Source of the DNA: Asterias rubens
Lineage: Eukaryota
Direction: 5' to 3'
Length of the DNA stretch: 64,000 nt
Assembly: GCF_902459465.1 (NCBI RefSeq)
Contig: NC_047064.1
Span: 640,762 to 704,761 of the forward strand
How positions within the stretch are numbered: the stretch's first letter is position 1; every line of letters begins with the position of its first letter. Positions 3,940 through 52,065 of the stretch are shown in pieces. The position numbers were made by a program, and so were the translations under genes. Below the pieces are notes generated by a model. That model made no database searches, was not told the origin of the DNA, and saw nothing but the letters and a program-made list of their open reading frames with translations.

Positions 3940-4700
3940 TGTTTTCTTCAGCAGGTTGATCGTCTGCTAGTCGTCGGTTAGTAAGTAGGCCTCCTGCTGT
4001 GCACAGTGTCTCGTCGATCGTGTAGTAGAGAGATGTTCAGAGTGTTGTTGTCGGGCATGTGTGTGTGTGTGACGACGTACGTCGTACGTTAGTTTTTAAA
4101 AAATGCGTGCGTGCGTGTGTGTGTGCGCGGTATTGTTGTACGCGTTACTGGTCAGCGCTTTGCGATAATAGTTTTTTATGCAGGCTGTTTGCGGGCACCG
4201 GGTGGGCGTTCAACTTCACGCGTTGCGCAACGACCAATAGACCGATCCATTGCTAGACTTGTGGACAAGTCGTTAAATCGGCCCCACGCGCTGAGATAGT
4301 GCTCCCCCGACAACACTGCTCTCGCGCGAACTCACTGCTCTCGCGCGAACTGATGGCTCCCCGATTTCGACTGAGTCGAAATCGGGGAGCCATCAGTTCG
4401 CGCGAGAGCAGTGAGTTCGCGCGAGAGCAGTGTTGTCGGGGGAGCACTATCTCAGCGCGTGGGGCCGATTTAACGACTTGTCCACAAGTCTAATCCATTG
4501 CATGCATTGCAACGAAATAAAGCCCGACATGCGTGCGCGTATGCTTGGCGCGCGCGGCAGAGTTGTGCAGAAAGGCATTGTAGCTCTCACGTGCTCCTTT
4601 TGCTCATAGTCTCGTGAACGCAGTCTCGTGAACAAAGCGCCACTGCCTTCACACACGAAAACACCGCGACCGGGGCATTGACATCCCCAATGGCGCTACT
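3940..4700. promoter_or_regulatory. CpG-rich, GT/GC simple-repeat-rich block between the minus-strand small gene and the plus-strand PIP5K1; candidate promoter or CpG island
   Basis: High CpG density (cgtcg, gcgcgcg, acgtacgtcg) against an AT-rich background. It lies directly upstream of the candidate exon 1 at 3902. Confidence 0.3.
4253..4493. repeat. perfect 241-bp palindrome (120-bp arms, centre 4373)
   Basis: ORFs 4253..4447(-) and 4299..4493(+) give identical 64-aa translations, so the sequence equals its own reverse complement. Confidence 0.9.
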
Positions 4701-5399
4701 AAAAAATTTTATGAGAGAACGTTCATGTGATTCGGGTAAATTTAATAACGAAATCATGATTTGATATTCAAAGTTAATAGGAAAGTTTACTTAGTGTGGG
4801 CCACGCCTAAACGAACTACTATAATTGGATACATATGATATAAAAACATATACATATCCATATAAATTGGATACATATGATATAAAGTGTTTTTCAATGG
4901 CAGAAGAGATCCCCCACCCCACCCAGGTGCTGATGGAGGTGCCTCCTCCACCATCTGGCCTGTGCAAGGTGTCTCGCAAGAAGAAGTGACTTTTATCTGG
5001 ACTCTCTTGAAGACGTGACATGCATATGTGGGACAGAGCCACAAACTATAAACACCTATTTGGAGCGAGACTGCAAAATCGAGGACCTTGCACCCAGAGA
5101 ACAGTTTAAATTGCAATTGGAACTGTGTAAGAGTTCTGGCTGAAACATATCATCTAAGTGTTTGGTGGATACGATAAGAAGAAGAATGAAGTCAAAGTTT
5201 ATGTAAGTGGGTGAGAAATTCACCAGTACTGCAGTGCAGAGAATATCTTTCATTTTCTACTTTGTTGTGTATATCTATTTACTTGATCTTGAAAGGTCTG
5301 AAATTTTTATTGTTTGTCCCCCTTTCTAAGCCATCGCTTTTGGAGTCCCAGCAGAGAGGCTTTTTCCTAAACCTGAACTTCGTTTCCGTCTGCGGCTTT
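4366..5399 (+). repeat. segment E1 copy 1 (1034 bp, non-coding), identical to 6314-7347
   Basis: Four ORF pairs offset by exactly 1948 nt have identical translations. The segment begins with the right arm of the palindrome. Confidence 0.85.
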
Positions 5400-5400
5400 T

Positions 5401-6317
5401 TCAGATAAAGGATCATCCATGAAGTATAAAAGTCGAGCATCAACTATGGATGGAAGTGTAAGTGCTTTAAATTCTAATCGAGTTGGAAAATTTTTAGGCA
5501 TTTGAGGTTCAGATTTACTCAAGAGATTGGGTTGCTCGAGGAATATGCCAGTGATTTTTTTCACATAGCTCAAGAAATGACCGAGTATACAGTGCTAACA
5601 CATGTTGCAATTCTAGAGCAGTGTCATACCAACTAGACCACCGAGGTTGCCCGGCAGCTAGAGGCAGTTCGAATCCTATGTTTTGGCAGCGGGTACCGCA
5701 ACGATATAATAGATATAATAGATGTTGAATTTGCATCGGGGATAAAGAATATTAATTTTGGTTTTTTACCCATACACCGATGTGTGTTAGCACTGTATAC
5801 TCAGTACTTTCCCGAGTCCTGTGAAAAAATATCACAGGCATGTTACTCGGGTAACTTTTGTTTTCCCTCGCCCATCTTGAGGTATATTTTCTTATATTTG
5901 GTTTTGTACTGTTTGGCAAATAAAATAATAATAACATCCTAATCAGATAACAGTTGGTATCACATTGACATCCTGGTATTGCACGCATGTCGTACCTTAG
6001 TGTCGGATCTTCTTTGCATTGTGATTGGTCAATACGCAATGGGGCTAAGCTTAATGGATCGGTCTATTGTCTGAAACAAAAATCATGTTATTGGCCTGCT
6101 GGTCTGTCACAGGTTGTAGTTTGGGAACTGGCCTGGTGAACACTGACCAATCTTGTTTCTTTATCTTTTCTTCTATTCATTGTTCTATTGTAAGGGTGGC
6201 TGGTAATAGTATAAAACATTGTGAGAAACAGCTCCCAGTGAAGAAACTAAGTTTTTGAGAAAGAAGTTATTTTCAACGAATTTGAAATTCGAAAGGATCT
6301 GAAAGCACACAACTTCG
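5401..6317 (+). mobile_element. segment E2 copy 1 (917 bp); its 3' ~240 bp are homologous to the MITE-A interior
   Basis: Identical to 11385-12301 (ORFs 5515..5736 = 11499..11720, 5752..6039 = 11736..12023, 6067..6258 = 12051..12242). Confidence 0.8.
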
Positions 6318-7347
6318 ACTGAGTCGAAATCGGGGAGCCATCAGTTCGCGCGAGAGCAGTGAGTTCGCGCGAGAGCAGTGTTGTCGGGGGAGCACTATCT
6401 CAGCGCGTGGGGCCGATTTAACGACTTGTCCACAAGTCTAATCCATTGCATGCATTGCAACGAAATAAAGCCCGACATGCGTGCGCGTATGCTTGGCGCG
6501 CGCGGCAGAGTTGTGCAGAAAGGCATTGTAGCTCTCACGTGCTCCTTTTGCTCATAGTCTCGTGAACGCAGTCTCGTGAACAAAGCGCCACTGCCTTCAC
6601 ACACGAAAACACCGCGACCGGGGCATTGACATCCCCAATGGCGCTACTAAAAAATTTTATGAGAGAACGTTCATGTGATTCGGGTAAATTTAATAACGAA
6701 ATCATGATTTGATATTCAAAGTTAATAGGAAAGTTTACTTAGTGTGGGCCACGCCTAAACGAACTACTATAATTGGATACATATGATATAAAAACATATA
6801 CATATCCATATAAATTGGATACATATGATATAAAGTGTTTTTCAATGGCAGAAGAGATCCCCCACCCCACCCAGGTGCTGATGGAGGTGCCTCCTCCACC
6901 ATCTGGCCTGTGCAAGGTGTCTCGCAAGAAGAAGTGACTTTTATCTGGACTCTCTTGAAGACGTGACATGCATATGTGGGACAGAGCCACAAACTATAAA
7001 CACCTATTTGGAGCGAGACTGCAAAATCGAGGACCTTGCACCCAGAGAACAGTTTAAATTGCAATTGGAACTGTGTAAGAGTTCTGGCTGAAACATATCA
7101 TCTAAGTGTTTGGTGGATACGATAAGAAGAAGAATGAAGTCAAAGTTTATGTAAGTGGGTGAGAAATTCACCAGTACTGCAGTGCAGAGAATATCTTTCA
7201 TTTTCTACTTTGTTGTGTATATCTATTTACTTGATCTTGAAAGGTCTGAAATTTTTATTGTTTGTCCCCCTTTCTAAGCCATCGCTTTTGGAGTCCCAGC
7301 AGAGAGGCTTTTTCCTAAACCTGAACTTCGTTTCCGTCTGCGGCTTT
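6314..7347 (+). repeat. segment E1 copy 2
   Basis: See copy 1. It diverges from copy 1 after 7347 (ggctttGGGCTCC versus ggcttttTCAGAT). Confidence 0.85.
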
Positions 7348-8001
7348 GGGCTCCGTTTGATGTTAGAAACATCATATTTTTACCTCCATGGAAACACGGG
7401 GTTGAAAAATGTGCTCCAATCCGGGGGTCAAACTCAGCGTAAGTGGAAAATCACTGAACATTGACTTGAGTCAGCAAATACAGTTATTTACATCGTTGAG
7501 GGCGCTGAAAGAACACTGCTTTGGCCGTCTTTGTTATTAGACTGGTCCCCTGTCTTTATCATACGAGCTTCAAAGTAATGACGTCAGATGTTCGGGCAAG
7601 AAAGAGGCCGGTACTAAACTGGTACTCGATAAACCATTCAATAATGAATTGGAATATACAGCACACATGGAAACCAGCCAACATTTACAGGTTCAGTTGT
7701 TTCCGGTAATTGACAAGTAGAGAACTGAGAAATATCGGGATTAAAATACAACATTTTAGCAGAAAAGATGTGAAAATAATGAAAGTCGGCGACCTGAAGG
7801 AATCTTTATTGCTGCGAATTCCATGAGAGTGAACTGAATGGTCAGACGGAAATGTTATGAAGCTTAATAGTTCAACACACACGTGAGGCGACGGGCGGAG
7901 GCCGTATTTTGTACACAAAAAAAGACTGTGTGTGTGTGCTGCGGATGTGAATGTAACAATTTTTTTGAAATTGCTGTGTTCTTTTCTAAACGGGTGACAA
8001 A

Positions 8002-8080
8002 ATGGCAGACGCCGACACTCCAGCAGCGACTAGATTAGGGCAGGAAAGGGAAAGAGAACGAACCTTATCTGGAAATAGTA
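8002..8080 (+). CDS. PIP5K1: possible first coding exon of PIP5K1 (MADADTPAATRLGQERERERTLSGNS), donor gtaagt at 8081
   Basis: An ATG is followed by an open frame and a strong donor. Its phase (1) does not join the 12505 exon (phase 0), so an intervening exon is either missing or this call is wrong. Confidence 0.25.
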
Positions 8081-8448
8081 GTAAGTACTTGAAAACAATT
8101 AACAACAATGTCAATGTCATGTGTGAAGAAAGTCAGTCGGACTCTGGAAGACCGGAGTGGTGCTAAAAAGAAAATGTTTGCAAAGAGTATTGTTTGTAAC
8201 AACTTTTATTAGCACCAACCCAGGTCAAAGGTCAACGTTTACTGGGTCAAGGTTTTCATGATGGAATTTTGTGTATACTTTTTATGGATAACTTTCTGTA
8301 TAGCGCCACCACTTTTTCCCCTGAAATACTATTTCATATGAAATGAAAAAGCGGTGGCGGCATGCGTAAACTTTTCCCTTTTCAATTAGTATCAAGAATT
8401 AGACCACTTCGAGATAATTATACTAAATAGTAATAAAATTATTCTGGT

Positions 8449-8607
8449 AGTTGCGATAATGAAACCCCCCCTCCTAGAATTTGTGTCAGTGGTAAAAATT
8501 GAGCAAATCTGTTGATTGATTAATTAGACCATTTCGCCCTTTACATTCGTATTTGGCTCATAACCTACAGGCTCTGCTGTCGGGAGGAGGGTTTCGTTAT
8601 CGCAACT
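8449..8607. mobile_element. MITE-B copy (159 bp) with TIRs AGTTGCGATAAtGaAACCCcCCTCC / GTCGGGAGGAGGGTTTCGTTATCGCAACT
   Basis: The terminal inverted repeats match those at 2923-3010. Confidence 0.5.
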
Positions 8608-11384
8608 ATGCGCTGTGAAGGTGCGATTATTATAAGTGTGTACATCAATTCAAGCTGCATTCAAAATATTCATTCACAAATGGTGATGTCAATGAAATAG
8701 CATTTTATTTTTGTATAGTTTTTCAACTGTTTTATATTGTTCAACTTGAACTCAGTAATTTGTCTCTCATTCAATGTTTTGTACAGTCTATAGATTAGTT
8801 CCCACCTGAGGTGCTGTTCACACTTTAAAGTTGAATGTTTTTGAATGCACAAAGCAATTTGTTTTCTTCGCATAAATACTGCATGCGGCACAGACTTAAA
8901 CTCCTTGCATCATTCTTCAGTGAACCGCAGCATTAGACTGCTTTATGCGGCTCATTCAAGCCAAAACCCAAGTTGCTTGTAAAATTACGTCCATTACTGT
9001 CGAATAACTGCAACCAACTCCTCACAGGGAAGTGGTGTGGTGTGGCAAGTGGAAAACATTAGTGGTGAGCTCCCCTCATGAAAGTGGTCATTTGGATTTT
9101 ATCTAGCCTAGTCTTGAACGAGTCTATTGAAGGAGCTTCTCTTATACATTCTGGTAGGCGGTTCCATTCAACGAGTGTTCTTGGAACAAAAGAGAATTTG
9201 TAACAGTCTTTAATGGTTGAAGGGTGGGTGAACGCAATTTATGAGGATTTCCTAGTGATAATTTGGTTTTCCTGTGGTTTGAGTTGATACTGGTCCGTGT
9301 CGATAGCAATTTTATGGTGCACAGATTAATATTTAATGGATATTATCTGCACATATTATGGGGGAAAAAAAAAACCACCTTCCCACATGTGCACTAGGTC
9401 TCCTAAAAGACTGAGAACGAGTTTCAAAACTAGGGCAAAAGGCAAAATTTTGGATAAAGTACCAATACCCTTTAAAAGGTTTCAACCAAAACATTTGAAA
9501 ATTCTAGACCAATTTTTGTATGAGTATTATTTATTATGAGGTCTTCCTATAGTTTGTTCACAACACAAGACAACTTGATTGTAATTTTGTTACTTTCTGA
9601 TGTTTTTATGTGATAAATCATGGTTTTTGCGATTTAAGGTTTTGAACACAGTGTGTTTTGCATTGTTGAGTTTGACGCTTACCACCCCAACAATTCAAAA
9701 TCCAGCAGCATGTTTTGTTTGGGCGTGTTGCGCAAGCGCACCTGTTGAATGAGGTGCATTCTGGGATAGCTATGGATCCAATTTGATCCCTTGTTATCCG
9801 AAAATGCACCTTATTTCACGCCTAATGCGCACCTGAGTATTGCGAAAAACTTATTGTTACAGTGAGGAAGTATCCCAATAATTCGCTCATGGGTGTACTG
9901 TTTAGTGTTAGGGTGTTTTAATGGACCTGTCCTGTACTACACCCACTGCATTTTATTACACATGGTGACACCCCCTCTTGTTGATCATGTGGCAGTCCAA
10001 AGTCATTATTTGTGCTGATCTAAGTAATAGGAGATTCTATTTACAATCGCGTCTGTAATCTCAAAGTTATCTGTACAGTGGTGAGAAGGGCCTGCTAGGA
10101 CAAGAATGTGGTATCTTTAAATAGGGCATGATATCAATATTCTGGCCGTTCAAACAACTCAAATTTGAAGGTCCCCATGGTCCATTTTGTTGGCAAAAGT
10201 TGGTTTTGAGGTTCTTTAGTTATGGTAATTTTGAAATGGCTCTTAACGTTTGAGGACAAGAAAATGGAAAAAAGATGCCTTGTAGACTTTTGTAAAGTAC
10301 CAGGGGCTTTTCCCATTAGTCTCTTTTTTTCTCTTTTTTTCTTGAATGACCCCACAAGTAAACAAATACCACACAGACAAGATACACACACATACTGTAG
10401 CATCTTATTTTTTTCACACAGTCTGTTTTTATCTTCATGTAATATGTGATAAAGTGGCAGTAGGTACATTGTTTTGTTTTGATATTTCTTGTTATTAATT
10501 AGTTATGTCAAGATGAGTATAAATGTTTACAAGTGTAACTGTTGTATGTGTATGCGATTTTGTTATTACAATGTACGTGCTGTTTTGTGCCCAGTCACTT
10601 TCCAACACTACACTGATTGTACGTGAGCACAATGTAATCATTTGTGAATCTGACCTTATTTGAGAAACTATGTTGGCATTTTGAAGGTCAATAGAAATTC
10701 CATGGGCACTCATGCAAGACTGACCAGGTAGATACAGTTCACTGTCCATCATGGGATGAATTCTTATTTTGGTACTGTCTGTCTAGGAAAATGGAAAGTT
10801 GGTGTTTAAAGCAAGTTTACTGGCAATACATGTAGTCTGGAGTTTGTCCTGAACTGTTGGTGACTAGCCAGGAGGACAAGTTGTGTAGCTTCCACTGATT
10901 TCACTAGTCCCGGCCCCCAGCCCAAACGTACAATACAACAGGGACAGATGTCGTCCAGCAACTTTGTTTTAGCAAAATGTTTAGACTGTACAAGTTTTGT
11001 GCACACTGAATATTTATAATTGAGTGGCAAATGGTGGTTTTGGGGTAGCACTGGATACATTTTGGATAGCATTGTTCTCTGCTATATGAGGAAAATCGTT
11101 TTAGTTCGCTGTACAATTAAAGTCTTTAACACGTATAAATTTCCAAAGTATCGGATCAAATATCTAATTTTAGCATACTGCTACTTTTTGTAGTTGACGG
11201 ATTTGAAGGTTGGAATACTGGGTGTGACTAAGTAATGTACACCAAGAATGTGACATCAACTGTTTGTTTTGTTAAATTTGTTTGACTTAATTTGCACATC
11301 AGAAAGGAAAATGGCATTAATTGCCTTTCAATGTCACCTAATCTAACAGGTTTTTGTTTTGTTTTGATGTTTTCCTTTTCCTTC

Positions 11385-12424
11385 TCAGATAAAGGATCAT
11401 CCATGAAGTATAAAAGTCGAGCATCAACTATGGATGGAAGTGTAAGTGCTTTAAATTCTAATCGAGTTGGAAAATTTTTAGGCATTTGAGGTTCAGATTT
11501 ACTCAAGAGATTGGGTTGCTCGAGGAATATGCCAGTGATTTTTTTCACATAGCTCAAGAAATGACCGAGTATACAGTGCTAACACATGTTGCAATTCTAG
11601 AGCAGTGTCATACCAACTAGACCACCGAGGTTGCCCGGCAGCTAGAGGCAGTTCGAATCCTATGTTTTGGCAGCGGGTACCGCAACGATATAATAGATAT
11701 AATAGATGTTGAATTTGCATCGGGGATAAAGAATATTAATTTTGGTTTTTTACCCATACACCGATGTGTGTTAGCACTGTATACTCAGTACTTTCCCGAG
11801 TCCTGTGAAAAAATATCACAGGCATGTTACTCGGGTAACTTTTGTTTTCCCTCGCCCATCTTGAGGTATATTTTCTTATATTTGGTTTTGTACTGTTTGG
11901 CAAATAAAATAATAATAACATCCTAATCAGATAACAGTTGGTATCACATTGACATCCTGGTATTGCACGCATGTCGTACCTTAGTGTCGGATCTTCTTTG
12001 CATTGTGATTGGTCAATACGCAATGGGGCTAAGCTTAATGGATCGGTCTATTGTCTGAAACAAAAATCATGTTATTGGCCTGCTGGTCTGTCACAGGTTG
12101 TAGTTTGGGAACTGGCCTGGTGAACACTGACCAATCTTGTTTCTTTATCTTTTCTTCTATTCATTGTTCTATTGTAAGGGTGGCTGGTAATAGTATAAAA
12201 CATTGTGAGAAACAGCTCCCAGTGAAGAAACTAAGTTTTTGAGAAAGAAGTTATTTTCAACGAATTTGAAATTCGAAAGGATCTGAAAGCACACAACTTC
12301 GTGTGACACAGGTGTTTTTTCTTTCATTATTATCTCAGGTTTGTTGTTTTATGCATATTGAGATGGATACACTAAGTGAGAAGACTGGTCTTTGACAGTT
12401 ACCAATAGTGTCCAGTGTCTTTTA
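11385..12424 (+). mobile_element. segment E2 copy 2 (11385-12301) continuous with a MITE-A 3' end and TIR (12302-12424): a long MITE-A-related element
   Basis: After CACAACTTCG it continues tgtgacacaggtgttttt...accaatagtgtccagtgtc, exactly as the MITE-A interior does (cacgacttcgtgtgtgacaagggtg). Confidence 0.7.
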
Positions 12425-12504
12425 TTTGCTGGGTAGCAGTGCATTATATTTGAAAAGCTCAGTCTCAATCTTTGTCTATCTGGGTTTTTTTTTTCTCCCT
12501 TTAG

Positions 12505-12594
12505 AGTCCTGTTCTTGATGGACCAACCACCCCAAGACAGAAGAAGATTGGCCACAGGAGGGTTGACACCTTAGGGGAAACAACATATAAAAAG
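12505..12594 (+). CDS. PIP5K1: PIP5K1 exon: SPVLDGPTTPRQKKIGHRRVDTLGETTYKK
   Basis: Matches the conserved PIP5K N-terminal motif KKIGHRxVD..GETTYKK. The acceptor is ctccctttag and the donor is gtaagt. Confidence 0.75.
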
Positions 12595-18353: not shown

Positions 18354-18990
18354 TTAGATTAGAATGGGTGGATGAAGGGGTGGGTGGGTATAGGGCAAGG
18401 TTGAGAAATGGGATTGCATTGGATGGGTTGAGTGAAGAGGTACAAGTGGGAATGCATTAGGATGGGTGGATGAATGGGTAGTGGGTATGAGTAAGGTCGA
18501 GGGTGGAACACTGCATCTTAGAATGGGTGAATAAAGGGTAAGGTTGAGGAATGGGTTTGCATTAGGATGGGTGGATGAATGTGTAGTGGGTATGAGTAAG
18601 GTCAAGGGTGGAACAATGCATCAGGATGGTTGGATGAAGGGGTGGGCGGGTAAAGGGTAAGGTTGAGGAATGAGGATTGCATTAGGATCAGTGGATGAAA
18701 GGGTAGTGGGTATGAGTAAGGTCGAGGGTGGAACACTGCATCTTAGAATGGGTGAATAAAGGGTAAGGTTGAGGAATGGGTTTGCATTAGGATGGGTGGA
18801 TGAAGGGGTGGGTGGGTAACACTGGGTATAGGGCAGGGCTGAGGAATTGCAAAACTACCACAGGATGGGTGGATAAATGGGTGGGTGATTAAATGGTGGA
18901 GGAAGGATAAAGTTGCATTTGAATCAATTCAGTGGAGGGAGGGTTGTCGGGTGGATGGGATGGGTAGAGGGCAAGAGGGAAAATTGCTTG
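18354..18990. repeat. satellite block, GGGTGGATGAA/GGGTAAGGTTGAGGAATGGG motifs with a ~105-120-bp higher-order unit x~5
   Basis: Repeated blocks at 18460-18565, 18566-18685 and 18686-18790. The ORF 18354..18605(-) is a repeat artefact. Confidence 0.8.
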
Positions 18991-19776
18991 TCAGTGATTT
19001 ATTTACATTGGGAGTGGAACACTTATTCTCATAATGTCATAATTCCTTGAATTACATGATTGTAAGCTACGCATCAAGCTTGCATAAAGATAAACTTGCT
19101 ATCGCACAATCGCGAGTGGAATATTGAAAAACATAGCGCCTCTGCGTCCCATTACTGATGAAATTTTGGCCGCAGACGAACTTTGTTTTCAGCATTCAAC
19201 TCCAGCCTGTGTGCTAACTAAAAAGTATTACCTCGTGGGATTTTTCAGACAACTCATTTGCATGGCGGGAATCTGAGGCTGCAGTATGCATAACCTACCT
19301 ACATGTACAGCCAGTTTGTTTAGATTGAAATTCTCTGCATAAACAATCAAGACAATGAAGACATCATTGTTTACTTTCTACCCCCAGTGGTCAACTGTCT
19401 CCATCATTTCTCCAGAGTGTCTAGAAATCGCATCTCCAATTCACTTTCTATGTTTTAAACGATTCTTAACATTTTCTTTATTTTTTCAAAAACTAATGTT
19501 TTCAAGTATTGAAGTCTCACTTTAAAAGTCAAATCTACTTTCAGAGATCATATTCAACACCTTCAAATAATATTAAAGATGCTGAGAATGTTTTTTTTTA
19601 ATGATTTAATTCCAATATAATTAAATTCCAAGACTGACTGTTCTTTGCCCTGAGTGTTTGTTCAAATATTGTCTGTCTGCCAGTGTCTATCGGGACATCC
19701 AGCACAAGGAAATGCTTGAGTGAGGTTTGGTTTGGAGGGAGATGGAATATGGCACAAATTTAAAATCAAGCTTTTT

Positions 19777-20120
19777 AAAGGCAGTGGACACTATTGGTAA
19801 TTACTTTAAATAATTATTAGCATAAAACCTTACTTGGTAACGAGTAATGGGGAGAGGTTGATGGTATAAAACATTGTGAGGAAAGGCTCACTCTGAAGTG
19901 GAGTAGTTTGAGAGAAAGAAGTAATTTTCCACGAATTTGATTTTGAGACCTCAAGTTTAGAATTTGAAGGGTGGAATCAAGCATCTGAAAGCACACGACT
20001 TCGTGTGTGACAAGGGTGTTTTTCTTTCATTATTATCTCGCAACTTCGATGACTGATTGAGCTAAAATTTTCACAGGCTTGTTATCTTTGACAATTACCA
20101 ATAGTGTCCACTGTCTTTAA
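19777..20120 (+). mobile_element. MITE-A full copy (TTAAAG GCAGTGGACACTATTGGTAAT ... ATTACCAATAGTGTCCACTGTC TTTAA)
   Basis: 22-bp terminal inverted repeats and TTAAAG flanks, with a shared interior. Confidence 0.7.
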
Positions 20121-20313
20121 CAATTCTTGGCAGTAGGGCACATGCTCAGACCTATGGAGCAATATTAGCAAATGCACTCTCATAACTGCAATTGTTTTAT
20201 GCTCTGCATGTTTGGCTGTGTTTTTCACATTTTCAATAGTACACAAAAATATCCCTTCAAGAGACACATTTATACACTACATGTACATGTAGGTGATGAG
20301 AAGGAACGTATGG

Positions 20314-20721
20314 TTAAAGACACTGGACACTATTAGTGATTGTCAAAGACCAGTCTTCCCACTTGGTGTTTCTCAACATGTGCATAAAATAACAAACCTG
20401 TGAAAATTTGAACTCAATTGGTCGTCGAAGTAGCGAGATAATAATGAATGAAAAAAACACCCTTGTCACACAAATTTTGTGTGTGTGTGCTTTCAGATGC
20501 TTGATTTCGAGACCTCAAATTCTAAACCTGAGGTCTCAAAATCAAATTCGTGGAAAATTAATTCTTTCTAAAGAACTACATCACTTCAGAGGGAGCCATT
20601 TCTCGCAATTTTTTATACCATCAACCTCTCCCTATAACTTGTTACAAAATAAGGTATTACTATTTTGAGTAATTACCAATAACTATTTTTAGTAATTACC
20701 AATATTGTCCACTGCCTTTAA
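20314..20721 (-). mobile_element. MITE-A full copy, inverted relative to 19777-20120 and 193 bp away
   Basis: TTAAAG ACACTGGACACTATTAGTGATTGTC ... ACCAATATTGTCCACTGCC TTTAA. Confidence 0.7.
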
Positions 20722-21459
20722 GCGTTGCATTTTGTTGCTTGTGTCGTAGACCTATTTCACGACCCACATTCTGTGTAGAGCAGACACTACGTGCAACACA
20801 CCAAAAGCAAACTACATATTCAAAAAGAAACTTTACCATATAATTGGGTTACTGAACCTACAATAATACACAAGTAACACACCATTGATATTGTATTTTT
20901 GTAACTTGATGTCCTGGTTTCTCATTGTTGCATTTGATCTTGAGATGTTGTGTTTGCATTGATCAAACAAGGAAAACAGTTTCATATAATTATTACACTA
21001 TACAAGAAAAAAGTATAGTGTGTCATTAGTTTCCTTGGGATTGTTCACCCAGTAATTTTTTGTAATTTATATAGTTTTTATATTGTTTGTGTATATTGTA
21101 TTTGGCCAGTGTATGTCAAGTTTCTATGTTTTTAACATGGACAAATAAATAAAATCTAGTCTAAATCTAATCTAAATTTAATCTAAATCTAATTACATGT
21201 AGTATAGTGTACAGAATATTGTGTCAATACAGTGTGCATGTATGAGAGTGGGAACCATAAATTCATTACATGTTAATTTGGTTGCAAAAATATCTAAGTT
21301 GTGTATTATTTGATCATCTGGCTCCATCTGACAAGCCTTAAACATTTTAGATGTTTGTTCATGGTGATATGGTCTAATCCAATAATCAATTTGTGAATGT
21401 TTATGGAGTTTGCAGAGAAGTTTAACCAATACTTTTTCTGGTATATTCTTTCCTTGCAG

Positions 21460-21518
21460 ACAAGTTCTTCGGCTTTGATGGCCGCAATTCAACTTGGTAT
21501 TGGTCATTCAGTGGGAAG
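21460..21518 (+). pseudogene. partial duplicate (copy 1) of the 5' 59 nt of PIP5K1 exon 21656..21786 with its acceptor; no donor
   Basis: Part of a 98-bp x3 tandem array (21421-21714). The third copy is the real exon start. Confidence 0.7.
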
Positions 21519-21557
21519 TTTAACCAATACTTTTTCTGGTATATTCTTTCCTTGCAG

Positions 21558-21616
21558 ACAAGTTCTTCGGCTTTGATGGCCGCAATTCAACTTGGTATTG
21601 GTCATTCAGTGGGAAG
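21558..21616 (+). pseudogene. partial duplicate (copy 2) of PIP5K1 exon start with acceptor
   Basis: Same 98-bp array, identical in sequence. Confidence 0.7.
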
Positions 21617-21655
21617 TTTAACCAATACTTTTTCTGGTATATTCTTTCCTTGCAG

Positions 21656-21786
21656 ACAAGTTCTTCGGCTTTGATGGCCGCAATTCAACTTGGTATTGGT
21701 CATTCAGTGGGAAGTTTATCAGCCAAACCAGAGAGAGACGTCCTTTTACAAGACTTCGCCGTCGTCGAGAGTATATTTTTCCCAAG
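21656..21786 (+). CDS. PIP5K1: PIP5K1 exon: [43 protein letters not shown](S)
   Basis: Near-identical to the vertebrate PIP5K1 segment [36 protein letters not shown]. The acceptor is ccttgcag and the donor is AG|gttaaa. Confidence 0.9.
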
Positions 21787-22002
21787 GTTAAAACTTAAGA
21801 CTTTTCTATTCTATAAAAATATCTTATATTATTGAATACTGTGGGGGGGGGGGGGGGGAGCTCATGCACTTCAGAGCATTTCAAACTATATCAGGACAAA
21901 CCCAAGAGAGTTTGAGGAATGTGGTTTACTGTGCCAGGCTTGTATGCTTTGTTTTTGAAATGGCACCAAGTATGGGGCACCCTTTGAGGAAATTGTGAAT
22001 TC

Positions 22003-22757
22003 CACTGATGTTATTGATTTCACTGATGTTATTGATTTCACTGATGTTATTGATTTCACTGATGTTATTGATTTCACTGATGTTATTGATTTTACTGATG
22101 ACATTGATTTCACTGATGACATTGATTTCACTGATGTTATTGATTTCACTGATGTTATTGATTTCACTGAAGTTATTGATTTCACTGATGTTATTGATTT
22201 CACTGATGACATTGATTTCACTGATGTTATTGATTTCAGTGATGTTATTGATTTCACTGATGTTATTGATTTCACTGATGTTATTGATTTCACTGATGTT
22301 ATTGATTTCACTGATGTTATTGATTTCACTGATGTTATTGATTTCAGTGATGTTATTGATTTCACTGATGTTATTGATTTCACTGATGTTATTGATTTCA
22401 CTGATGTTATTGATTTCACTGATGTTATTGATTTCACTGATGTTATTGATTTCACTGATGTTATTGATTTCACTGATGTTATTGATTTCACTGATGTTAT
22501 TGATTTCACTGATGACATTGATTTCACTGATGTTATTGATTTCACTGATGTTATTGATTTCACTGATGACATTGATTTCACTGATGTTATTGATTTCACT
22601 GATGTTATTGATTTCACTGATGTTATTGATTTCACTGATGTTATTGATTTCACTGATGTTATTGATTTCACTGATGTTATTGATTTCACTGATGTTATTG
22701 ATTTCACTGATGACATTGATTTCACTGATGACATTGATTTGATTTCACTTATTTCAC
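22003..22757. repeat. 18-bp minisatellite (CACTGATGTTATTGATTT, variant ..GACATTGATTT) ~41 copies inside PIP5K1 intron 21787-22807
   Basis: Explains the 244-282-aa ORFs in three frames (21886..22734-, 21995..22810+, 22008..22742+). Confidence 0.95.
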
Positions 22758-29749: not shown

Positions 29750-29902
29750 ATATCTCTGGTAGATCAGGCTTTACGAGAGTTGTCTAATCCTGGAGCTAGT
29801 GGAAGTGTCTTCTATCTTACTGATGATGATGAGTTTATCATTAAGACTGTACAACATAAGGAAGCAGACTTTCTTCAGAAGCTGCTACCCGGTTATTACA
29901 TG
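29750..29902 (+). CDS. PIP5K1: PIP5K1 kinase-core exon: [51 protein letters not shown]
   Basis: Matches the PIPK catalytic core motif [11 protein letters not shown]..[26 protein letters not shown]. The acceptor is tctttgtag and the donor is gtaagt. Confidence 0.95.
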
Positions 29903-29960
29903 GTAAGTCAAACATCTAAAGGTTGTGGGTTCAAATCTCACCCGAGTCATATATCCCTAT

Positions 29961-30086
29961 GAGTTGTCTAATCCTGGAGCTAGTGCGAGTGTCTTCTATC
30001 TTACTGATGATGATGAGTTTATCATTAAGACTGTACAACATAAGGAAGCAGACTTTCTTCAGAAGCTGCTACCCGGTTATTACATG
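29961..30086 (+). pseudogene. duplicate (copy 2) of the PIP5K1 kinase-core exon segment LSNPGAS(A)SVFY...GYYM with an intact gtaagt donor; 2-nt change GGAAGT to GCGAGT
   Basis: Member of a 184-bp x3 tandem array. It lacks the 27 nt 5' of the real exon. An AG at 29962-29963 (tatgag) would give an in-frame 123-nt cassette. Confidence 0.6.
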
Positions 30087-30144
30087 GTAAGTCAAACATC
30101 TTAAGGTTGTGGGTTCAAATCTCACCCGAGTCATATATCCCTAT

Positions 30145-30271
30145 GAGTTGTCTAATCCTGGAGCTAGTGCGAGTGTCTTCTATCTTACTGATGATGATGA
30201 GTTTATCATTAAGACTTGTACAACATAAGGAAGCAGACTCCCTTCAGAAGCTGCTACCTGGTTATTACATG
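30145..30271 (+). pseudogene. degenerate copy 3 of the same exon segment (1-nt insertion frameshift; further substitutions)
   Basis: 184-bp array; aagacttgtacaac has one extra T compared with the real exon. Confidence 0.6.
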
Positions 30272-30662
30272 GTAAGTCAAACATCTTTGCATCTTGAAAC
30301 GGAAGTTCATGAGATTTGTTCTTCAATTTAAAGGTAGATTGGCAAAGGTCGTGGGTTCAAATCCCACACGAATCATTTGCCTGTGATTTAATTTGTTTTT
30401 CTTCACAGAACTCTGAAAAGTACTGAAGTATACAGTGCACATCAGTGTGAGGGTAGAACCTTTCACTAAATATGAAGGGTTTTTTTCCCCTTTTTAAATG
30501 CGCCGTTTTAAAGTCACCTGGAAATATTTTTTTTTTTCTTTCAAACATAAGAGTATGTGCTTACGAATAATAAAACAATTTTTTTAGTAATTGTTTGTCA
30601 CGATTTATATGTTTAAAAAATATATAAAGTTGTTAGGGGGGCTGACTCCGCCTACCCCTTTT

Positions 30663-33433: not shown

Positions 33434-33765
33434 GGGGGGGGGGTTGAACCAACGACCTCCGGATTAACGTGCCGGCGCTCTACCAACTGAGCTATCCCCT
33501 GGTGATCCCCTGGATGCCGCTTCCCAGGTTATATCGGAATTTGGGTGTGATCCCTGGCTACACGGCAGTTGACGGTTACATGGCTTCTGACTGGCACCTA
33601 TTGACGAAATAGGGACACCGCTAATATAGGGCTAGATAGCTCAGTTGGTAGAGCGCCGGGTTGTTGGTTCGAATCCCACTCTAGTCAATTCTTTGTTCAA
33701 CCCCAAAAGTCATTTAAAAAATTACCCAGTCAGTTTCCCTTGTGGTTTATATTGATAATTATTAT
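33434..33765 (+). mobile_element. composite tRNA-derived SINE locus: inverted partial tRNA-like head, X region, forward tRNA-like head (anticodon arm deleted), AATTCTTTGTTCAACCCCAAAAG tail
   Basis: GGGCTAGATAGCTCAGTTGGTAGAGCGCCGG..GTTGGTTCGAATCCCACTCTAGTCA. It is the reverse complement of locus 51749-52065. Confidence 0.55.
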
Positions 33766-34129: not shown

Positions 34130-34503
34130 TTAAAGGCAGTGGACACTGTTGGTAATTACTCAAAATAATTGTTAGCATACAAAATTACTTGGTAATGAGC
34201 AATGGAGAGCTGTTGGTAGTACAAAACATTGTGATAAATGGCTCCCTCTGATGTAACATAGTTTTTGAAGAAGGAGGTTATTTCTGACTCAAATAATAAA
34301 AGACTTCAGCTGAAGCCTTTCAATATGCTTCTGACTACACAAAGAAATGCTTCATGGTTGTGTTTTCTTTCATTATTTTTTTGCTAATTCGATGACCAAC
34401 TGAGCCCAAATTTTCACAGGTTTGTTATTTTATGCTCATGTTGGGATACGCCAAGTGAGAATACTGGTCTTTGACAATTACCAAAGGTGTCCAGTGTCTT
34501 TAT
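34130..34503 (+). mobile_element. MITE-A copy filling most of the 496-bp PIP5K1 intron 34100-34595
   Basis: TTAAAG GCAGTGGACACTGTTGGTAAT ... CCAAAGGTGTCCAGTGTC TTTATTA. Confidence 0.7.
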
Positions 34504-34595
34504 TATTTGTTCTTTTGATTCATCAGTGCATGCCTCTAAATAACCCATGGCACACACCGTATTATTTTGTGTTTTATGTTTTTTGTTATTTTCAG

Positions 34596-40773: not shown

Positions 40774-41232
40774 GTGAGAATGCTTAGCAAGAAAGTCTGC
40801 TTTAATTAGCAAGAAAGTCTGCTTAACGAAATAATATGGGAACACAGTTACTCTGCCGGTTGAAAAAGCTATAAAGACTTGGCCATGAAATATGTCACTA
40901 TGTTTGTGCTACATAAACTCAATCTATTTAGAAAACTATACACAAAAAATGAAGGCAAAATTTCCGGATTTAGTTTTCACTTCAAATTTATTTCAAATCT
41001 TAGTTGAAACAAGTTCAGTGTAGTTCAACTTTGATGAACTGCGATGCCTTGACATATTATTTGTTGCAATTTTGATTCAATGTGTAGCACTCTAATTCAC
41101 ACTTTCAAATGGCGCACATCCCATTCATGCTCGTTTGCAAATTAACTCATCAATAATAACCATAAATAACAGTAAGTTAACTAACCCTGAACCACTTGAT
41201 GCTTATTAGGCCAAACTTGTGTGGAAGTTAAT

Positions 41233-41605
41233 TAAAGGCACTGTACACATTTGGTAATTGTCAAAGACCAGTGTTCTTACTTGGTGTATACCAGCATAAG
41301 CATAAAATAACAAACCTGTGAAAATTTGAGCTCAATTGGTCATCGAAGTTGCGAGAAAATGATGAAAGAAAAAACACCTTTGTTGGACTTAATTGTGTGC
41401 TTTCAGAAAGAATTCAAACTTCTAGCTAAAAGTCTTATAATATATTAGTGAGAAATTACCTCTTTCTCAAAAACTATATCACTTCAGAGGGAGTCGTTTC
41501 CCACAATGTTTGATACTATCAACAGCTCTCCAATGCTCGTTACCAAGTCAGTTTTTAAATTAATATTTGTTTTGAGTAACTACCAAACGTGTACCTTACC
41601 TTTAA
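41233..41605 (-). mobile_element. MITE-A subfamily-2 copy (TIR GGCACTGTACACATTTGGTAAT / ..CCAAACGTGTACCTTACC)
   Basis: Its interior is ~90% identical to 47028-47404 and it has TTAAAG flanks. Confidence 0.65.
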
Positions 41606-41981: not shown

Positions 41982-43168
41982 CACTCAGCTACCCTCTCTT
42001 ATCCCAATAGCTACCAACTCTCAATACCGCAGCTACCCTTTCTCACCCCCACAACTACTTAATATCAACCCCTTAGCTATTTAGTCTAAACCACAAATTT
42101 ACCCGCTCTCAACCCATATAGCTATCCACTTTCAACCCTATAGGTACCCACTCTCAACCCTATAGGTACCCACTCTTAACCCTATAGGTACCCACTCTCA
42201 ACCCCATAGCTACCCACTCTCAACCCCATAGCTACCCACTCTCAACCCCATAGCTACCCACTCTCAACCCCCTAGCTACCCACTCTCGACCCCATAGCTA
42301 CCCACTCTCGACCCCTTAGCTACCCACTCTCAACCCCCTAGCTACCCACTCTCAACCCCATAGCTACCCACTCTCAACCCCCTAGCTACCCACTCTCAAC
42401 CCCCTAGCTACCCACTCTCGACCCCATAGCTACCCACTCTCAGTCCCATAGCTATCCACTCTCAACCCCATTGGTACCCACTCTCAACCCTATAGGTACC
42501 CACTCTCAACCCCCTAGCTACCCACTCTCAACCCCCTAGCTACCCACTCTCAACCCTATAGGTACCCACTCTCGACCCCATAGCCACCCACTCTCAACCC
42601 CATAGCTACCCACTCTCAACCCCCTAGCTACCCACTCTCGACCCCCTAGCTACCCACTCTCAGTCCCATAGCTACCCACTCTCAAACCCCTAGCTACCCA
42701 CTCTCAACCCTCTAGCTACCCGATCTCAACCCTATAGGTACCCAATCTCAACCTCTTAGCTACCCACTCTCAACCCCATAGCCACCCACTCTCAACCCCC
42801 TAGCTACCCACTCTCAACCCCCTAGCTACCTACTCTCAACCCTCTAGCTACCCACTCTCAACCCCATAGCCACCCACTCTCAACCCCCTAGCTACCCACT
42901 CTCAACCCCCTAGCTACCCACTCTCAACCCCCTGGCTACCCACTCTCAACCCCATACCTACCCACTCTCAACCCCATACCTACCCACTCTCAACCCCCTA
43001 GCTACCCACTATTGACCCCCTAGCTACCCACTCTCAACCCCCTAGCTACCCACTCTCAACCCCAGAGCTGCCCACTCTCAACCCCCTAGCTACACACTCT
43101 CAACCCCATAGCTACCCACTCTCAACCCCATAGCTACCCACTCTCAACCCTATAGCTACCCACTCCAA
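41982..43168. repeat. ~1.2-kb satellite of a 22-bp unit (TAGCTACCCACTCTCAACCCCA and variants) ~54 copies in the last PIP5K1 intron
   Basis: Direct tandem repeat. Confidence 0.95.
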
Positions 43169-45489: not shown

Positions 45490-47027
45490 GCTTATTTGTC
45501 ATTGTTCAAAATTATTATTCATCATTCAGTTTACTTTGCAATTTGGTTGTCACTTTTTTTGTAAGTGGCATGATTTTGATGATTCTTTTGTACCAGGTTT
45601 CCTAAAGATGCTAGCTTTGAAATATCATGCATAACAATGTACATCCTGCATAACTAAAAGAAAATTCAGTTATTTTTGCTTCCCTCAATGCAGCTAGATT
45701 ACTTGTAGTTGACATTAATCCTGGGGGTGGGGGTAAAGTTGATAGCGTTTAGATGCTGGTCTTTTTGAAGTTTGTCATATCGATGAGGTAGATATCTCTA
45801 CAAGAAATTGTCTTTTCTTTCAGTTTACAGAACATGTGCAGCACACAAATGCTCTGGTATTTTGTCAACCAGCAGCATCCCTTTTTGAACCAAACATTTT
45901 TGAGAAAGTTCAAAAGATGAAAAATCTTAGGAGGAATTGCCATAAGAGGAATGGTTCAAATGTAGTACCAAAATGCTTACCACATGTCTTAGGTTGTAAC
46001 AAAGTCGAGTGTTATGTCAGGTTCAATACACCTAAAGTTGGTTTCATTTCTTGTGGTTGGTAGTGATTTCATAGAGCTACTTATCTTACAATTTGTTGCA
46101 TGTTAACATTTCTTATCGCTGAAATAAACTGCTTGATCAAAGTAGCATACTAACAAACTGCAGGTCTCCAACTAACCCATGGCACACATGCTGCCCTGTG
46201 TTTTTTCTTTGGTGCCCTTTGCAAATACAAAGTAATTTTTTCCCCATAGAAATGCCCGATTCAGAATTGTTGTGCTCCTTCCAGAGCAATGATAAGGTCC
46301 TTTCAAAAAGGCAATCATCTCGTTTTAACGCCCAAAGTTAAGTCATTTAAAATGCATTTCCCAGGCTGTATTTTTAAAACACTATGCTGAATCCAATGCT
46401 GACAGTCAAACTTAGCATAAAGATGAGAAAAGATAAGTTTGATTGAGTTAAAACCACTGGAAATGTGAAGAGTATTTCACTGCATTACATTAGAAAAACA
46501 TTTTTCAGAGAAGTTGTCTTTTAATTTGCCGGTAGAACTTGTCTGACCTCTGCTAGAATGTGATGGTTTTTGGAAATACCTTAAACAAAAGCTAAAAGTT
46601 TGTCTACATTTTGATAGCATTTCTGAATTGTGTAAGTTGCTGAGACAATATGTTGTCAAACTTACCAAACCTAATTTTAGTTGTAAATTGAAATTGTAAA
46701 AATTGTGAATATTAATTTTGGTTAATTGTTTAATTCTAAAAGCTGCTTTGTCTAATTTGGGATGGTTGAAAACACTAAACCAGTCCCTTTTTATTTGATT
46801 GGATAGATGTACAGTATACATACACACACAATGACACAATAGTGCACACAGCTCAGTGTTACAGCCGATCTGGGGACATTTTGTTCTATCTGTGCACTTA
46901 TGACAAAAAGTATTCTTCAACACTGTCAAAAACAATTGTGTGGCCGTGTGTAAGTCCAAATAGTGTTTCATGTCTGCACAATATTTGAAATTCTTTTGTT
47001 CTCTCAGGTCCACATTTTGTGTCTATT

Positions 47028-47404
47028 GCTTAAAGACACTTGACACTATTGGTAATTGCCAAAGACCAGTCTTCTCACTTGGTGTATCTCAACATATGCA
47101 TAAAATAACAAACCTTTGAAAATTTGGGCTCAATTGATCATCGAAGTTGCGAGAAAATGATGAAAGAAAAAACACCCTTGTTGGACGAATTTGTGTGCTT
47201 TCAGAGAGGAATAAAAGACTTCTAGCTAGAATTCTTTTTATTTTTTAGTGAGAAATTACCTCTTTCTCAAAAACTACGTTACTTCAGAGGGAGTCGTTTC
47301 CCACAATGTTTTATACTATCAACAGCTCTCCAATGCTCGTTACCAAGTCAGTTTTTAAATTAATATTTGTGTTGTCTACAAAATGTGTACCTTCCCTATA
47401 AATA
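47028..47404 (-). mobile_element. MITE-A subfamily-2 copy
   Basis: TTAAAG ACACTTGACACTATTGG ... CAAAATGTGTACCTTCC CTATAAA. Confidence 0.65.
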
Positions 47405-51748: not shown

Positions 51749-52065
51749 TGGTTGAACAAAGAATTGACTAGAGTTGGATTCGAACCAACGACCTCCGGAT
51801 TAACGTGCCGGCGCTCTACCAACTGAGCTATCTAGCCCTATATTGGCGGTGTCCCTATTTTGTCAATATCTTTGTTCGGGGGTGCCAGTCAGAAGCCATA
51901 CAACCGTTAACTGCCTTGTAGCCAGGGATCACACCCAAAGTACGATACAACCTGGGAAGCGGCAGCCAGGGGATCACCATAAGTCAATTCTTTGTTCAAC
52001 CCCAAAAATCATTTCAAAATTTACCCAGTCAGTTTCCTTGTGGTTTATATTGATATTCAAAGTAT
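51749..52065 (-). mobile_element. composite tRNA-derived SINE locus with a full cloverleaf-capable tRNA-like head (GTT-anticodon-like loop ACGTTAA)
   Basis: rc = GGGCTAGATAGCTCAGTTGGTAGAGCGCCGGCACGTTAATCCGGAGGTCGTTGGTTCGAATCCAACTCTAGTCAATTC. The X region and tail are shared with 33434-33765. Confidence 0.55.

Follow-up and report, generated by a model that had tools for sequence, protein, structure and literature searches.

A 64,000-nt stretch of the Asterias rubens genome (GCF_902459465.1, NC_047064.1, positions 640,762-704,761, forward strand; referred to here as the window) carries two perfectly repeated segments, E1 and E2, in the order E1-E2-E1-X-E2. The E1-E2-E1 part probably stems from a very recent local duplication of the microhomology-mediated complex tandem type, with the structure of "Pack-TIR gap-filling", which would have followed a break or a stalled fork at the tip of a hairpin. 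The locus is probably an ordinary duplication and not a new mobile element. Exact-match extension paired positions 4366-5399 with 6314-7347 (E1; 1034 bp, 0 mismatches, offset 1948) and 5401-6317 with 11385-12301 (E2; 917 bp, 0 mismatches, offset 5984), and both pairs were also recovered by repeat finding and self-BLAST of the window. They are the only long 100%-identical repeats within these 64 kb, where other dispersed repeats reach at most 95% identity, and a chance origin of the identity is excluded. The components of the locus are listed below.

4366-5399, forward strand: E1 copy 1, 1034 bp, with its original left-hand surroundings, the left palindrome arm and flank A.
5400, forward strand: junction J1 (E1|E2), one T; the parental flanks, G after E1 and C before E2, are both unmatched.
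5401-6317, forward strand: E2 copy 1, 917 bp, the derived copy, whose 3' end truncates a dispersed repeat.
6314-6317, forward strand: junction J2 (E2|E1), a TTCG microhomology common to both parental sequences.
6314-7347, forward strand: E1 copy 2, 1034 bp, beginning 3-7 nt to the left of the palindrome centre and so with the right palindrome arm only.
7348-11384, forward strand: X, unique, 4037 bp, with no terminal inverted repeats and no target-site duplication.
11385-12301, forward strand: E2 copy 2, 917 bp, whose neighbouring sequence is ancestral at either end.

The preliminary description of this DNA reported a 1948-bp unit repeated 1.53 times in tandem at apparent 100% identity. The identity held, but the unit is present as two full copies, the second of which is split by X, and the E2 at 11385, previously taken for a free copy, makes up the second half of unit copy 2, whose completion had been missed. 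The E1 length of 1034 bp stood, and the E2 match, 917 bp long, overlaps E1 by the TTCG at 6314-6317. E1 copy 2 runs on into X, as it does in wild DNA, and J1 and J2 are the only new junctions. The E1-X, X-E2 and E2-B junctions are ancestral, and the ancestral order is A - [239-bp palindrome] - E1 - X - E2 - B.

J1 contains GCGGCTTTTTCAGATAAAGG (31-mer, GTTTCCGTCTGCGGCTTTTTCAGATAAAGGA) and J2 contains CACACAACTTCGACTGAGTCG (31-mer, AAAGCACACAACTTCGACTGAGTCGAAATCG); the k-mers of the ancestral junctions are GCGGCTTTGGGCTCCG, TTCCTTCTCAGATAAAGG, and CACAACTTCGTGTGACAC. The 1-nt filler at J1 and the 4-nt microhomology at J2 are typical of end-joining or template switching, and by our own calculation at least 4 nt of microhomology would occur by chance with a probability of ∼1.6%. 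At its 3' end, E2 runs into a member of a dispersed repeat family of ∼300 bp.

12183-12443, forward strand: dispersed repeat, intact copy; its equivalent at 6199-6317 is cut by J2.

In E2 copy 2 this repeat continues in register with six other family members, whereas in E2 copy 1 it ends at ...AACTTCG, where E1 begins. J2 is thus a breakpoint, since it falls inside a dispersed repeat that is intact in the other E2 copy. The sequence joined to the repeat at J2 starts 3-7 nt from the centre of the palindrome, the only perfect one in the window, and chance placement of the E1 breakpoint this close to such a centre within a few kilobases has a probability below 1%. The "hairpin" previously noticed at the start of the unit is indeed this perfect 239-nt palindrome (4254-4492). 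Its features are as follows.

4254-4492, no strand: perfect palindrome, 239 bp, with 119-nt arms and its centre at G4373; resembles a foldback-type element.
4245-4253, forward strand: left 9-bp direct repeat ATCCATTGC, a putative target-site duplication; the match between the end of the left flank and the start of the right flank is exactly 9 nt long (chance, ∼4e-6).
4493-4501, forward strand: right 9-bp direct repeat ATCCATTGC, which recurs at 6441-6449 inside E1 copy 2.

The arms are 100% complementary, each with two tandem 19-mers (AGTTCGCGCGAGAGCAGTG), and the predicted fold of the palindrome DNA has an energy of -174 kcal/mol (z = -35). Long inverted arms with tandem subrepeats and a direct repeat of 9 bp, within the 8-10 bp range, are two hallmarks of foldback/Mutator-type elements; this form and this flanking repeat suggest that the palindrome is an insertion of that type, and the predicted sequence of its empty site is GACCGATCCATTGCATGCATTGC. 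The 9-bp direct repeats around the hairpin had previously been overlooked. Drosophila FB and Meloidogyne Tm1 (PMC3169594) are likewise made up mostly of inverted repeat, with short tandem subrepeats in the arms (2 x 19 nt in the palindrome) and a 9-bp direct duplication as further shared traits; the size of this duplication agrees with that of FB/MULE elements. Unlike these elements, the palindrome is seen in one copy in the window, lacks the Tm1 terminal motifs, and comes with no known transposase or family consensus. Further copies of it were found neither within the 64-kb window nor in a JGI metagenome scan (0 hits). Rfam searches of the palindrome returned miRNA-precursor matches below threshold only (48 bits versus a gathering score of 95); they reflect the perfect hairpin, and membership in an Rfam miRNA family was rejected.

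The anatomy of the junctions backs the "very recent segmental duplication" that had been listed among the alternatives for this locus. As in a tandem duplication, each outer flank is ancestral, on the left of the left copy and on the right of the right copy. The new junctions bear just a few shared or inserted nucleotides, long homology being absent, and the unduplicated junctions E1-X and X-E2 are seen in wild contigs. We propose that the palindrome extruded a hairpin or cruciform that was cut, or at which the fork stalled, a few nucleotides from the tip. Repair synthesis would have copied E1 from the sister or homologue and then switched template, jumping ahead past X to the beginning of E2 and leaving one untemplated T; after 917 bp of E2 had been copied, the broken end would have been rejoined via the 4-nt TTCG microhomology. 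Such a process would place a templated insertion of 1948 bp at the centre of the palindrome, i.e., a head-to-tail duplication of E1-X-E2 with X missing from the first copy. Breakage at the tip is thus the putative trigger, and one event instead of two presumably sufficed.

Microhomology-mediated complex tandem duplications are products of FoSTeS/MMBIR-type template switching (see also PMC11790251). The locus shares with them the head-to-tail copies, two new junctions (0-4 nt of microhomology or one inserted nucleotide), cis templates that lie within 8 kb, and the combination of a duplication with a skipped segment, but here the mechanism is deduced from a single assembled haplotype. Palindromes are known fragile sites (reviewed in PMC7999016). 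Human PATRRs also combine a long perfect palindrome with breakpoints a few nucleotides from the symmetry centre; however, they are >90% AT, whereas the palindrome described here is GC-rich, and the presumed breakage led to a local duplication and not to a translocation or deletion.

The window was compared with independent contigs from several ENA marine metagenome assemblies; ENA samples in which the species occurs are ERZ1764465 and SAMEA7060528/30/33/39/41. These wild contigs match the window at 99.6-99.9% identity (26 differences in 12046 positions, ∼0.22%); four of them (L001 to L004) cross E1-X and three (L007 to L009) cross X-E2. Between two alleles, ∼4 differences would be expected over the 1951 bp at which the E1 and E2 copies show none (P(0), ∼0.015), which gives the copies a more recent date than the typical divergence between alleles. 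No independent contig in the ENA marine assemblies spans J1 or J2. The MEGAHIT contig L008 passes unbroken from X 177 nt into E2, where J1 at equal depth would give a branch in the assembly graph. Judging from this contig, the wild population is probably not fixed for the duplication, as would be the case for a private variant and for an artefact alike. The starts of L001 to L004, 11-66 nt before the end of E1, were also considered as marks of a graph branch, but no k-mer size fits them. Exact-sequence look-ups of nine ORFs yielded no record in the protein collection, a protein search with a 1253-aa concatenate of the junction, E1 and E2 ORF translations gave no match, and two JGI metagenome scans found nothing.

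The proposed gap filling also has a published match. Single-copy Pack-TIRs of animals have been attributed to transposition-independent gap filling: their fillers are reported to come from nearby (mostly <5 kb), the median microhomology at the breakpoints is 2 bp, and the breakpoints are concentrated towards the element's middle. Among the known cases is Ssk-FB4, with an FB element (Tan et al. 2021, PMC8277862). In the A. rubens locus, host DNA including an exon likewise lies between the inverted arms of a TIR-type element with a putative flanking target-site duplication, the parental segments are in cis 0-7 kb away, one breakpoint shows microhomology, and the element is broken in its middle with none of its sequence lost. 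The filler of 1948 bp, with the left arm at 4254-4372 on one side and the right arm at 6322-6440 on the other, falls within the 100-5000 bp of non-TE sequence set for Pack-TIRs, and its parents are 100% identical to it, the threshold being at least 90%. However, a parental segment should not lie within 100 bp of the element, whereas the parental E1 starts inside it and includes its right arm; the pipeline of Tan et al. excludes such cases as segmental duplications. Moreover, the TIRs of a Pack-TIR belong to the consensus of an annotated TE family, and the element here is not known as a member of one. A bolder reading, fairly unlikely in our estimation, takes the locus for a newborn Pack-TIR, in which a foldback-type transposon broke at its tip and received a 1.9-kb fill from its own flank and an exon of the neighbouring PIP5K gene. 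If this reading were true, the 2187-bp unit (4254-6440), bounded by intact arms and the original 9-bp duplication, could be mobilised, with a fill that is still 100% identical to its adjoining sources. The locus would then show in nature how host sequence is captured, a step whose mechanism has long been debated for Pack-MULEs.

An artefact of library preparation or assembly is an unlikely explanation. The individual would then carry a single E1-X-E2, to which chimeric molecules or reads (e.g., from in vitro template switching of a polymerase at the hairpin) or misassembly added E1-E2. The perfect identity of both repeat pairs is compatible with this, as are the restriction of independent contig support to the ancestral junctions and the unbroken L008, which suggests that J1 is absent or rare in the wild sample. 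The gene around the repeats, a PIP5K gene, holds two further small tandem duplications, a perfect one of 98 bp x 3.1 and a 184-bp triplication; the former, as a second perfect tandem repeat in the same gene, also speaks for an artefact. In contrast, the copies of the triplication are 96-98% identical, and it can therefore not be an assembly artefact; its diverged state indicates that real local duplications happen in this gene. Furthermore, overlap assembly cannot make junctions that share 0-4 nt, so that reads with J1 and J2 must exist, and a single chimeric read is unlikely to have determined the consensus. Stacking of haplotypes would leave differences of ∼0.2% between the copies and would truncate neither a repeat nor the palindrome.

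Two real events, a 5988-bp tandem duplication of E1-X-E2 via TTCG and a later 4037-bp deletion of X, with its extra exon 1, from the upstream copy, would yield an identical final sequence. Both steps are common types of mutation, and the junctions differ in signature, J1 being blunt with one added nucleotide and J2 sharing 4 nt. Nevertheless, we hold this history to be unlikely: both events must fit within a period that saw no substitution in 1951 bp, and one event in which the template was switched twice is the more economical account.

Very unlikely is the homologous recombination at E1 of a 1948-bp extrachromosomal circle (E1 plus E2), or of its rolling-circle concatemer. Integration of a circle with J1 and J2 into the chromosomal E1 would give exactly E1-E2-E1-X-E2, but it requires two nonadjacent segments and two junctions, hence more steps than the alternatives, and there is no Rep/helicase, no Helitron terminus and only one extra unit. 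The concatemer of rolling-circle type suggested earlier, with its start at the hairpin, is an idea of this kind and does not hold up: the right end of the unit is a breakpoint in a dispersed repeat and no element terminus, and Rep/helicase and Helitron ends are lacking. Helitrons have 5'-TC and 3'-CTRR ends, a subterminal 3' hairpin and an A^T target, with Rep/helicase in autonomous copies. A Helitron was rejected here: the unit ends ...CACACAAC inside the dispersed repeat, which continues in the other copy, the hairpin is on the 5' side, and no Rep/Hel domain is present.

An LTR-type or other defined mobile unit E1-E2-E1 is extremely improbable, the likeness to an LTR retrotransposon being confined to the two identical direct repeats that bracket an internal segment. 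E1 starts TTCG.. (TTCGACTG) and ends ..CTTT (GCGGCTTT) instead of TG..CA, the flanks CCGAT (4361-4365) and GGGCT (7348-7352) form no target-site duplication, and neither a TGG primer-binding site (E1 is followed by TTCAGATAAAGG) nor a polypurine tract is seen. No gag/pol is present, with no Pfam domain in the 10 E1/E2 ORFs; the "internal" part consists of a host exon, intron and repeat fragments; the left edge of E1 lies inside the palindrome and the right edge of E2 inside another repeat; and the 64 kb hold no further copies. Missing TG..CA termini, target-site duplication, primer-binding site and gag/pol bear out the earlier judgement against an LTR element, and E1-E2-E1 should be kept from LTR annotation. 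Two other origins were discarded. X is not a transposon inserted in copy 2: it has no inverted repeats, target-site duplication or poly-A, it holds an exon 1, and E1-X and X-E2 are wild type. Nor did E1|E2 arise from spliced RNA: 4 nt separate the junction from the exon downstream of it, and ∼860 nt of intron are still present in E2.

The following exons of the PIP5K gene, an animal lipid-kinase gene, were delineated, with hand-assembled exon segments used in the Pfam check.

8002-8080, forward strand: predicted PIP5K exon 1, with ATG, 26 codons plus 1 nt and a GTAAGT donor; the ORF is also present in wild contigs.
11389-11441, forward strand: predicted PIP5K exon 2, 53 nt, required for the frame between exons 1 and 3.
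5405-5457, forward strand: duplicate of PIP5K exon 2, with an AG acceptor and a GTAAGT donor, at an offset of -5984 from 11389-11441.
12505-12594, forward strand: predicted PIP5K exon 3, SPVLDGPTTPRQKKIGHRRVDTLGETTYKK.

X holds a PIP5K-type exon 1 and intron 1, and exon 1 splices in frame via exon 2 in E2 to exon 3; X likely contains the PIP5K promoter as well. The unit is therefore not wholly noncoding, contrary to the earlier statement, because E2 opens with the predicted 53-nt coding exon; exon 1 in X and exon 2 in E2 had both gone unnoticed. The coding exons of the downstream PIP5K copy are untouched, and no function is implied for the duplication. For biology at large the locus matters little, as another young, probably private structural variant in a repeat-rich invertebrate genome. 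It is nonetheless a clean example, with a perfect palindrome at the breakpoint, two legible junctions and both templates beside the product, and it could illustrate hairpin-induced microhomology-mediated templated repair as well as the gap-filling route to Pack-TIRs. Finally, the duplicated exon 2 and its upstream region could confuse PIP5K gene models.

Exact-match extension delimited two repeat pairs with zero mismatches, E1 (1034 bp; 4366-5399 = 6314-7347) and E2 (917 bp; 5401-6317 = 11385-12301), both recovered also by a repeat finder and by self-BLAST. Across the 64-kb window, all other repeat pairs of at least 150 nt are at most 95% identical, and a chance origin of the E1 and E2 identity is excluded. 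The order is E1-E2-E1-X-E2, where X is a unique 4037-bp segment (7348-11384). The preliminary description thus had the repeat coordinates right, but its extent of 1.53 tandem copies was too small: the 1948-bp unit is complete twice, with copy two divided by X. The window (~36% G+C) is rich in micro- and minisatellites and dispersed repeats, and carries on the + strand, from ~8 kb onward, a type-I PIP5K gene whose assembled exon segments match Pfam PF01504 (234 bits).

8002-8080, + strand: predicted PIP5K exon 1, with a good ATG context, ending one base into a codon at a GTAAGT donor
11389-11441, + strand: predicted PIP5K exon 2, 53 nt, bounded by cag and gtaagt
12505-12594, + strand: predicted PIP5K exon 3 (...KKIGHRRVDTLGETTYKK)
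5405-5457: duplicate of PIP5K exon 2, in E2 copy 1

In this 5′ gene model, the reading frame is held only with the 53-nt exon 2 included, exon 1 and intron 1 both fall in X, and E1 lies upstream of the ATG (roughly -3.6 to -0.65 kb). E2 reaches from 4 nt before exon 2 to ~860 nt into intron 2, so the 1948-bp unit, initially taken as non-coding, is not purely so, and its first E2 copy holds the duplicate exon.

The 3′ part of E2 falls within a ~300-bp dispersed repeat, whose family (~300-350 bp) has copies 65-93% identical in both orientations, with an inverted pair at 19823-19976/20506-20659.

303-665, 12183-12443, 19776-20140, 20316-20676, 34209-34509, 41208-41574, 47006-47374: copies of the dispersed ~300-350-bp repeat

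In an alignment with six other window copies, the copy at 12183-12443 crosses 12301 in register with the family, whereas that at 6199-6317 breaks off at ...AACTTCG into E1; the junction between E2 and the right flank (12301/12302) is therefore ancestral. Several marine metagenome assemblies in ENA (SOLA22-1 records, ERZ1764465, and others) include short contigs with 99.6-99.9% identity to the window. Contigs L001-L004 span the E1-X boundary (7347/7348) and L007-L009 the X-E2 boundary (11384/11385), and both junctions are likewise ancestral. The boundary of the left flank with E1 (4365/4366) is unbroken with the palindrome described below. The only derived junctions are the following two.

5399/5401: J1, joining E1 to E2, with a single T unlike either parent
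6314-6317: J2, joining E2 to E1, with TTCG common to both parents

By our calculation, microhomology of at least 4 nt is expected at ~1.6% of random junctions. Insertion of X into copy two is ruled out, since it has neither terminal inverted repeats nor a target-site duplication nor poly-A, and since it has exon content.

The E1 and E2 copies show 0 differences in 1951 bases compared, versus ~4 expected between two random alleles (P of none, ~0.015); between the wild contigs and the window, 26 of 12046 positions differ (~0.22%). The copies are thus younger than ordinary allelic divergence, or are homogenized by conversion. At assumed mutation rates between 1e-8 and 1e-9 per site per generation, the duplication would be no older than roughly 8e4 to 8e5 generations (95% upper bound). 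Of the alternatives listed earlier, the very recent segmental duplication is the one that the junction anatomy supports. The MEGAHIT contig L008 runs unbroken from X to 177 nt inside E2, at low coverage there, which argues weakly, and only suggestively, that its sample has J1 rarely or not at all; the duplication is therefore probably not fixed. DNA this close to the window (99.6-99.9%), covering 7282-8907 and 9111-11664 in contigs L001-L009, is present in at least six marine assemblies of this kind (SOLA22-1_SAMEA70605xx_METAG, ERZ1764465/78), so the DNA of this species is common in those water samples.

4254-4492: perfect palindrome, 239 nt, arms of 119 nt, with the central G4373 as sole unpaired base

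The palindrome as single-stranded DNA has a folding energy of -174 kcal/mol (z = -35). Two 19-mers lie in tandem in each arm, and a 9-nt direct repeat, ATCCATTGC, lies on either side (chance at exactly these positions, ~4e-6). The duplicated block begins at 4366-4370, 3-7 nt left of the symmetry centre, and E1 copy 2 consequently has the right arm only. Near-total inverted repetition, arm sub-repeats, and a 9-bp duplication are also the form of foldback/Mutator-superfamily non-autonomous elements (PMC3169594). Because no second copy was found in the 64-kb window, we only infer from this likeness that the palindrome may be a foldback/Mutator-type transposon. Its tip (4333-4417, both strands) gives only sub-threshold Rfam matches, to miRNA precursors (mir-873, 48 bits versus a gathering score of 95; mir-BART5; mir-2235), which stem from the perfect hairpin; a transcript of the 119-bp hairpin would plausibly serve as a Dicer substrate. 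Directly to the left of the palindrome, a 17-mer, AATGGATCGGTCTATTG (4235-4251, - strand), overlaps the 9-bp flank repeat and recurs inverted within E2 (6053-6069 and 12037-12053, + strand; 0.17 matches expected by chance). The reconstructed palindrome "empty site" resembles this E2 motif across ~35 nt, and the motif may represent a regulatory module that contains CCAAT, or else a small repeat.

Two equivalent readings fit the structure: either E1-X-E2 (5988 bp) was duplicated in tandem, with X missing from the upstream copy, or 1948 bp (4370-6317) were inserted at the palindrome centre, templated in direct order by two non-adjacent downstream segments. We favour a single event. Palindromes are well-documented fragile sites (PMC7999016); a hairpin or cruciform may have been cleaved at its tip, or have stalled a fork there, followed by repair synthesis through E1 on the sister or homologue, a forward template switch to E2 that would have left the 1-nt filler, and recapture of the broken end by means of TTCG. 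This anatomy is that of the single-copy animal "Pack-TIRs", ascribed by Tan et al. to transposition-independent gap filling, in which TIR elements break at internal sites, possibly induced by secondary structure, fillers come from nearby sources (mostly <5 kb), and breakpoints show microhomology (median, 2 bp) and a skew to the element's middle, with little element sequence lost (PMC8277862). An internal, mid-element break, near templates, microhomology, and little loss are all common to both. Unlike in Pack-TIRs, one parental copy adjoins the element itself, a configuration that the pipeline of Tan et al. drops as plain segmental duplication (PMC8277862), and we accordingly call the locus a complex tandem duplication of Pack-TIR-like structure rather than a certified Pack-TIR. 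That a foldback element was caught here while packing host gene fragments is unlikely. Overall, the locus represents an ordinary structural variant of very recent origin, with instructive anatomy.

An assembly artefact behind the extra E1-E2 seems rather improbable. The copies are perfectly identical, the duplication lacks independent support, and the PIP5K gene holds another perfect micro-duplication (98 bp x3.1, 21417-21718); but overlap assembly cannot make junctions with 0-4 nt of overlap, stacked haplotypes would show ~0.2% differences and would leave both the repeat and the palindrome uncut, and an older tandem triplication in the same gene (184 bp, 96-98% identical, 29777-30286) must be real. 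An LTR element fails on termini, primer-binding site, and polypurine tract, as already argued despite the LTR-like E1-E2-E1 layout, and on target-site duplication and coding content; a Helitron, or the rolling-circle-type concatemer proposed previously, fails on ends and Rep.

Three exon-overlapping tandem duplications occur in the PIP5K gene. The 98-bp unit (100% identity, with GAAGTTTA microhomology at the repeat edges) comprises 41 nt from the 3′ end of an intron, AG acceptor included, and the first 57 nt of the next exon; the upstream acceptors, if spliced to, would lead into a stop codon. The 184-bp unit (x2.8) comprises the 3′ 127 nt of an exon, the GT donor, and 57 nt of intron, with a 1-nt insertion in copy 3. 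Within E2, an inner ~280-bp inverted-repeat structure (5547-5838 and 11531-11822; arms of 47 nt, 83% complementary) has a tRNA-like core (..GGCAGTTCGAATCC..) and is probably a tRNA-derived SINE or MITE; the intron after the 184-bp repeat contains a related piece (30398-30499). A tRNA-like match in the PIP5K gene region (33630-33687, + strand, 58 nt, 42 bits) is probably a SINE-derived relic, and a tRNA-Asn(GTT) gene lies at 51765-51837 (- strand, 63 bits). Long minisatellites include an 18-nt unit x41 in a PIP5K intron (21999-22740), with spurious 240-280-aa ORFs on both strands, a 22-nt unit x53 with extreme C-skew (41987-43165), and a G-rich array of 59-61-nt units (18358-18911). Finally, a 512-aa open exon of a doublecortin-like kinase (59790-61328, - strand) encodes a doublecortin domain, a long Glu/Lys-rich linker, and the start of the kinase domain, with best matches in the enteropneust hemichordates Ptychodera flava and Glandiceps talaboti (only ~70% identity across the kinase portion, 30% of the query).
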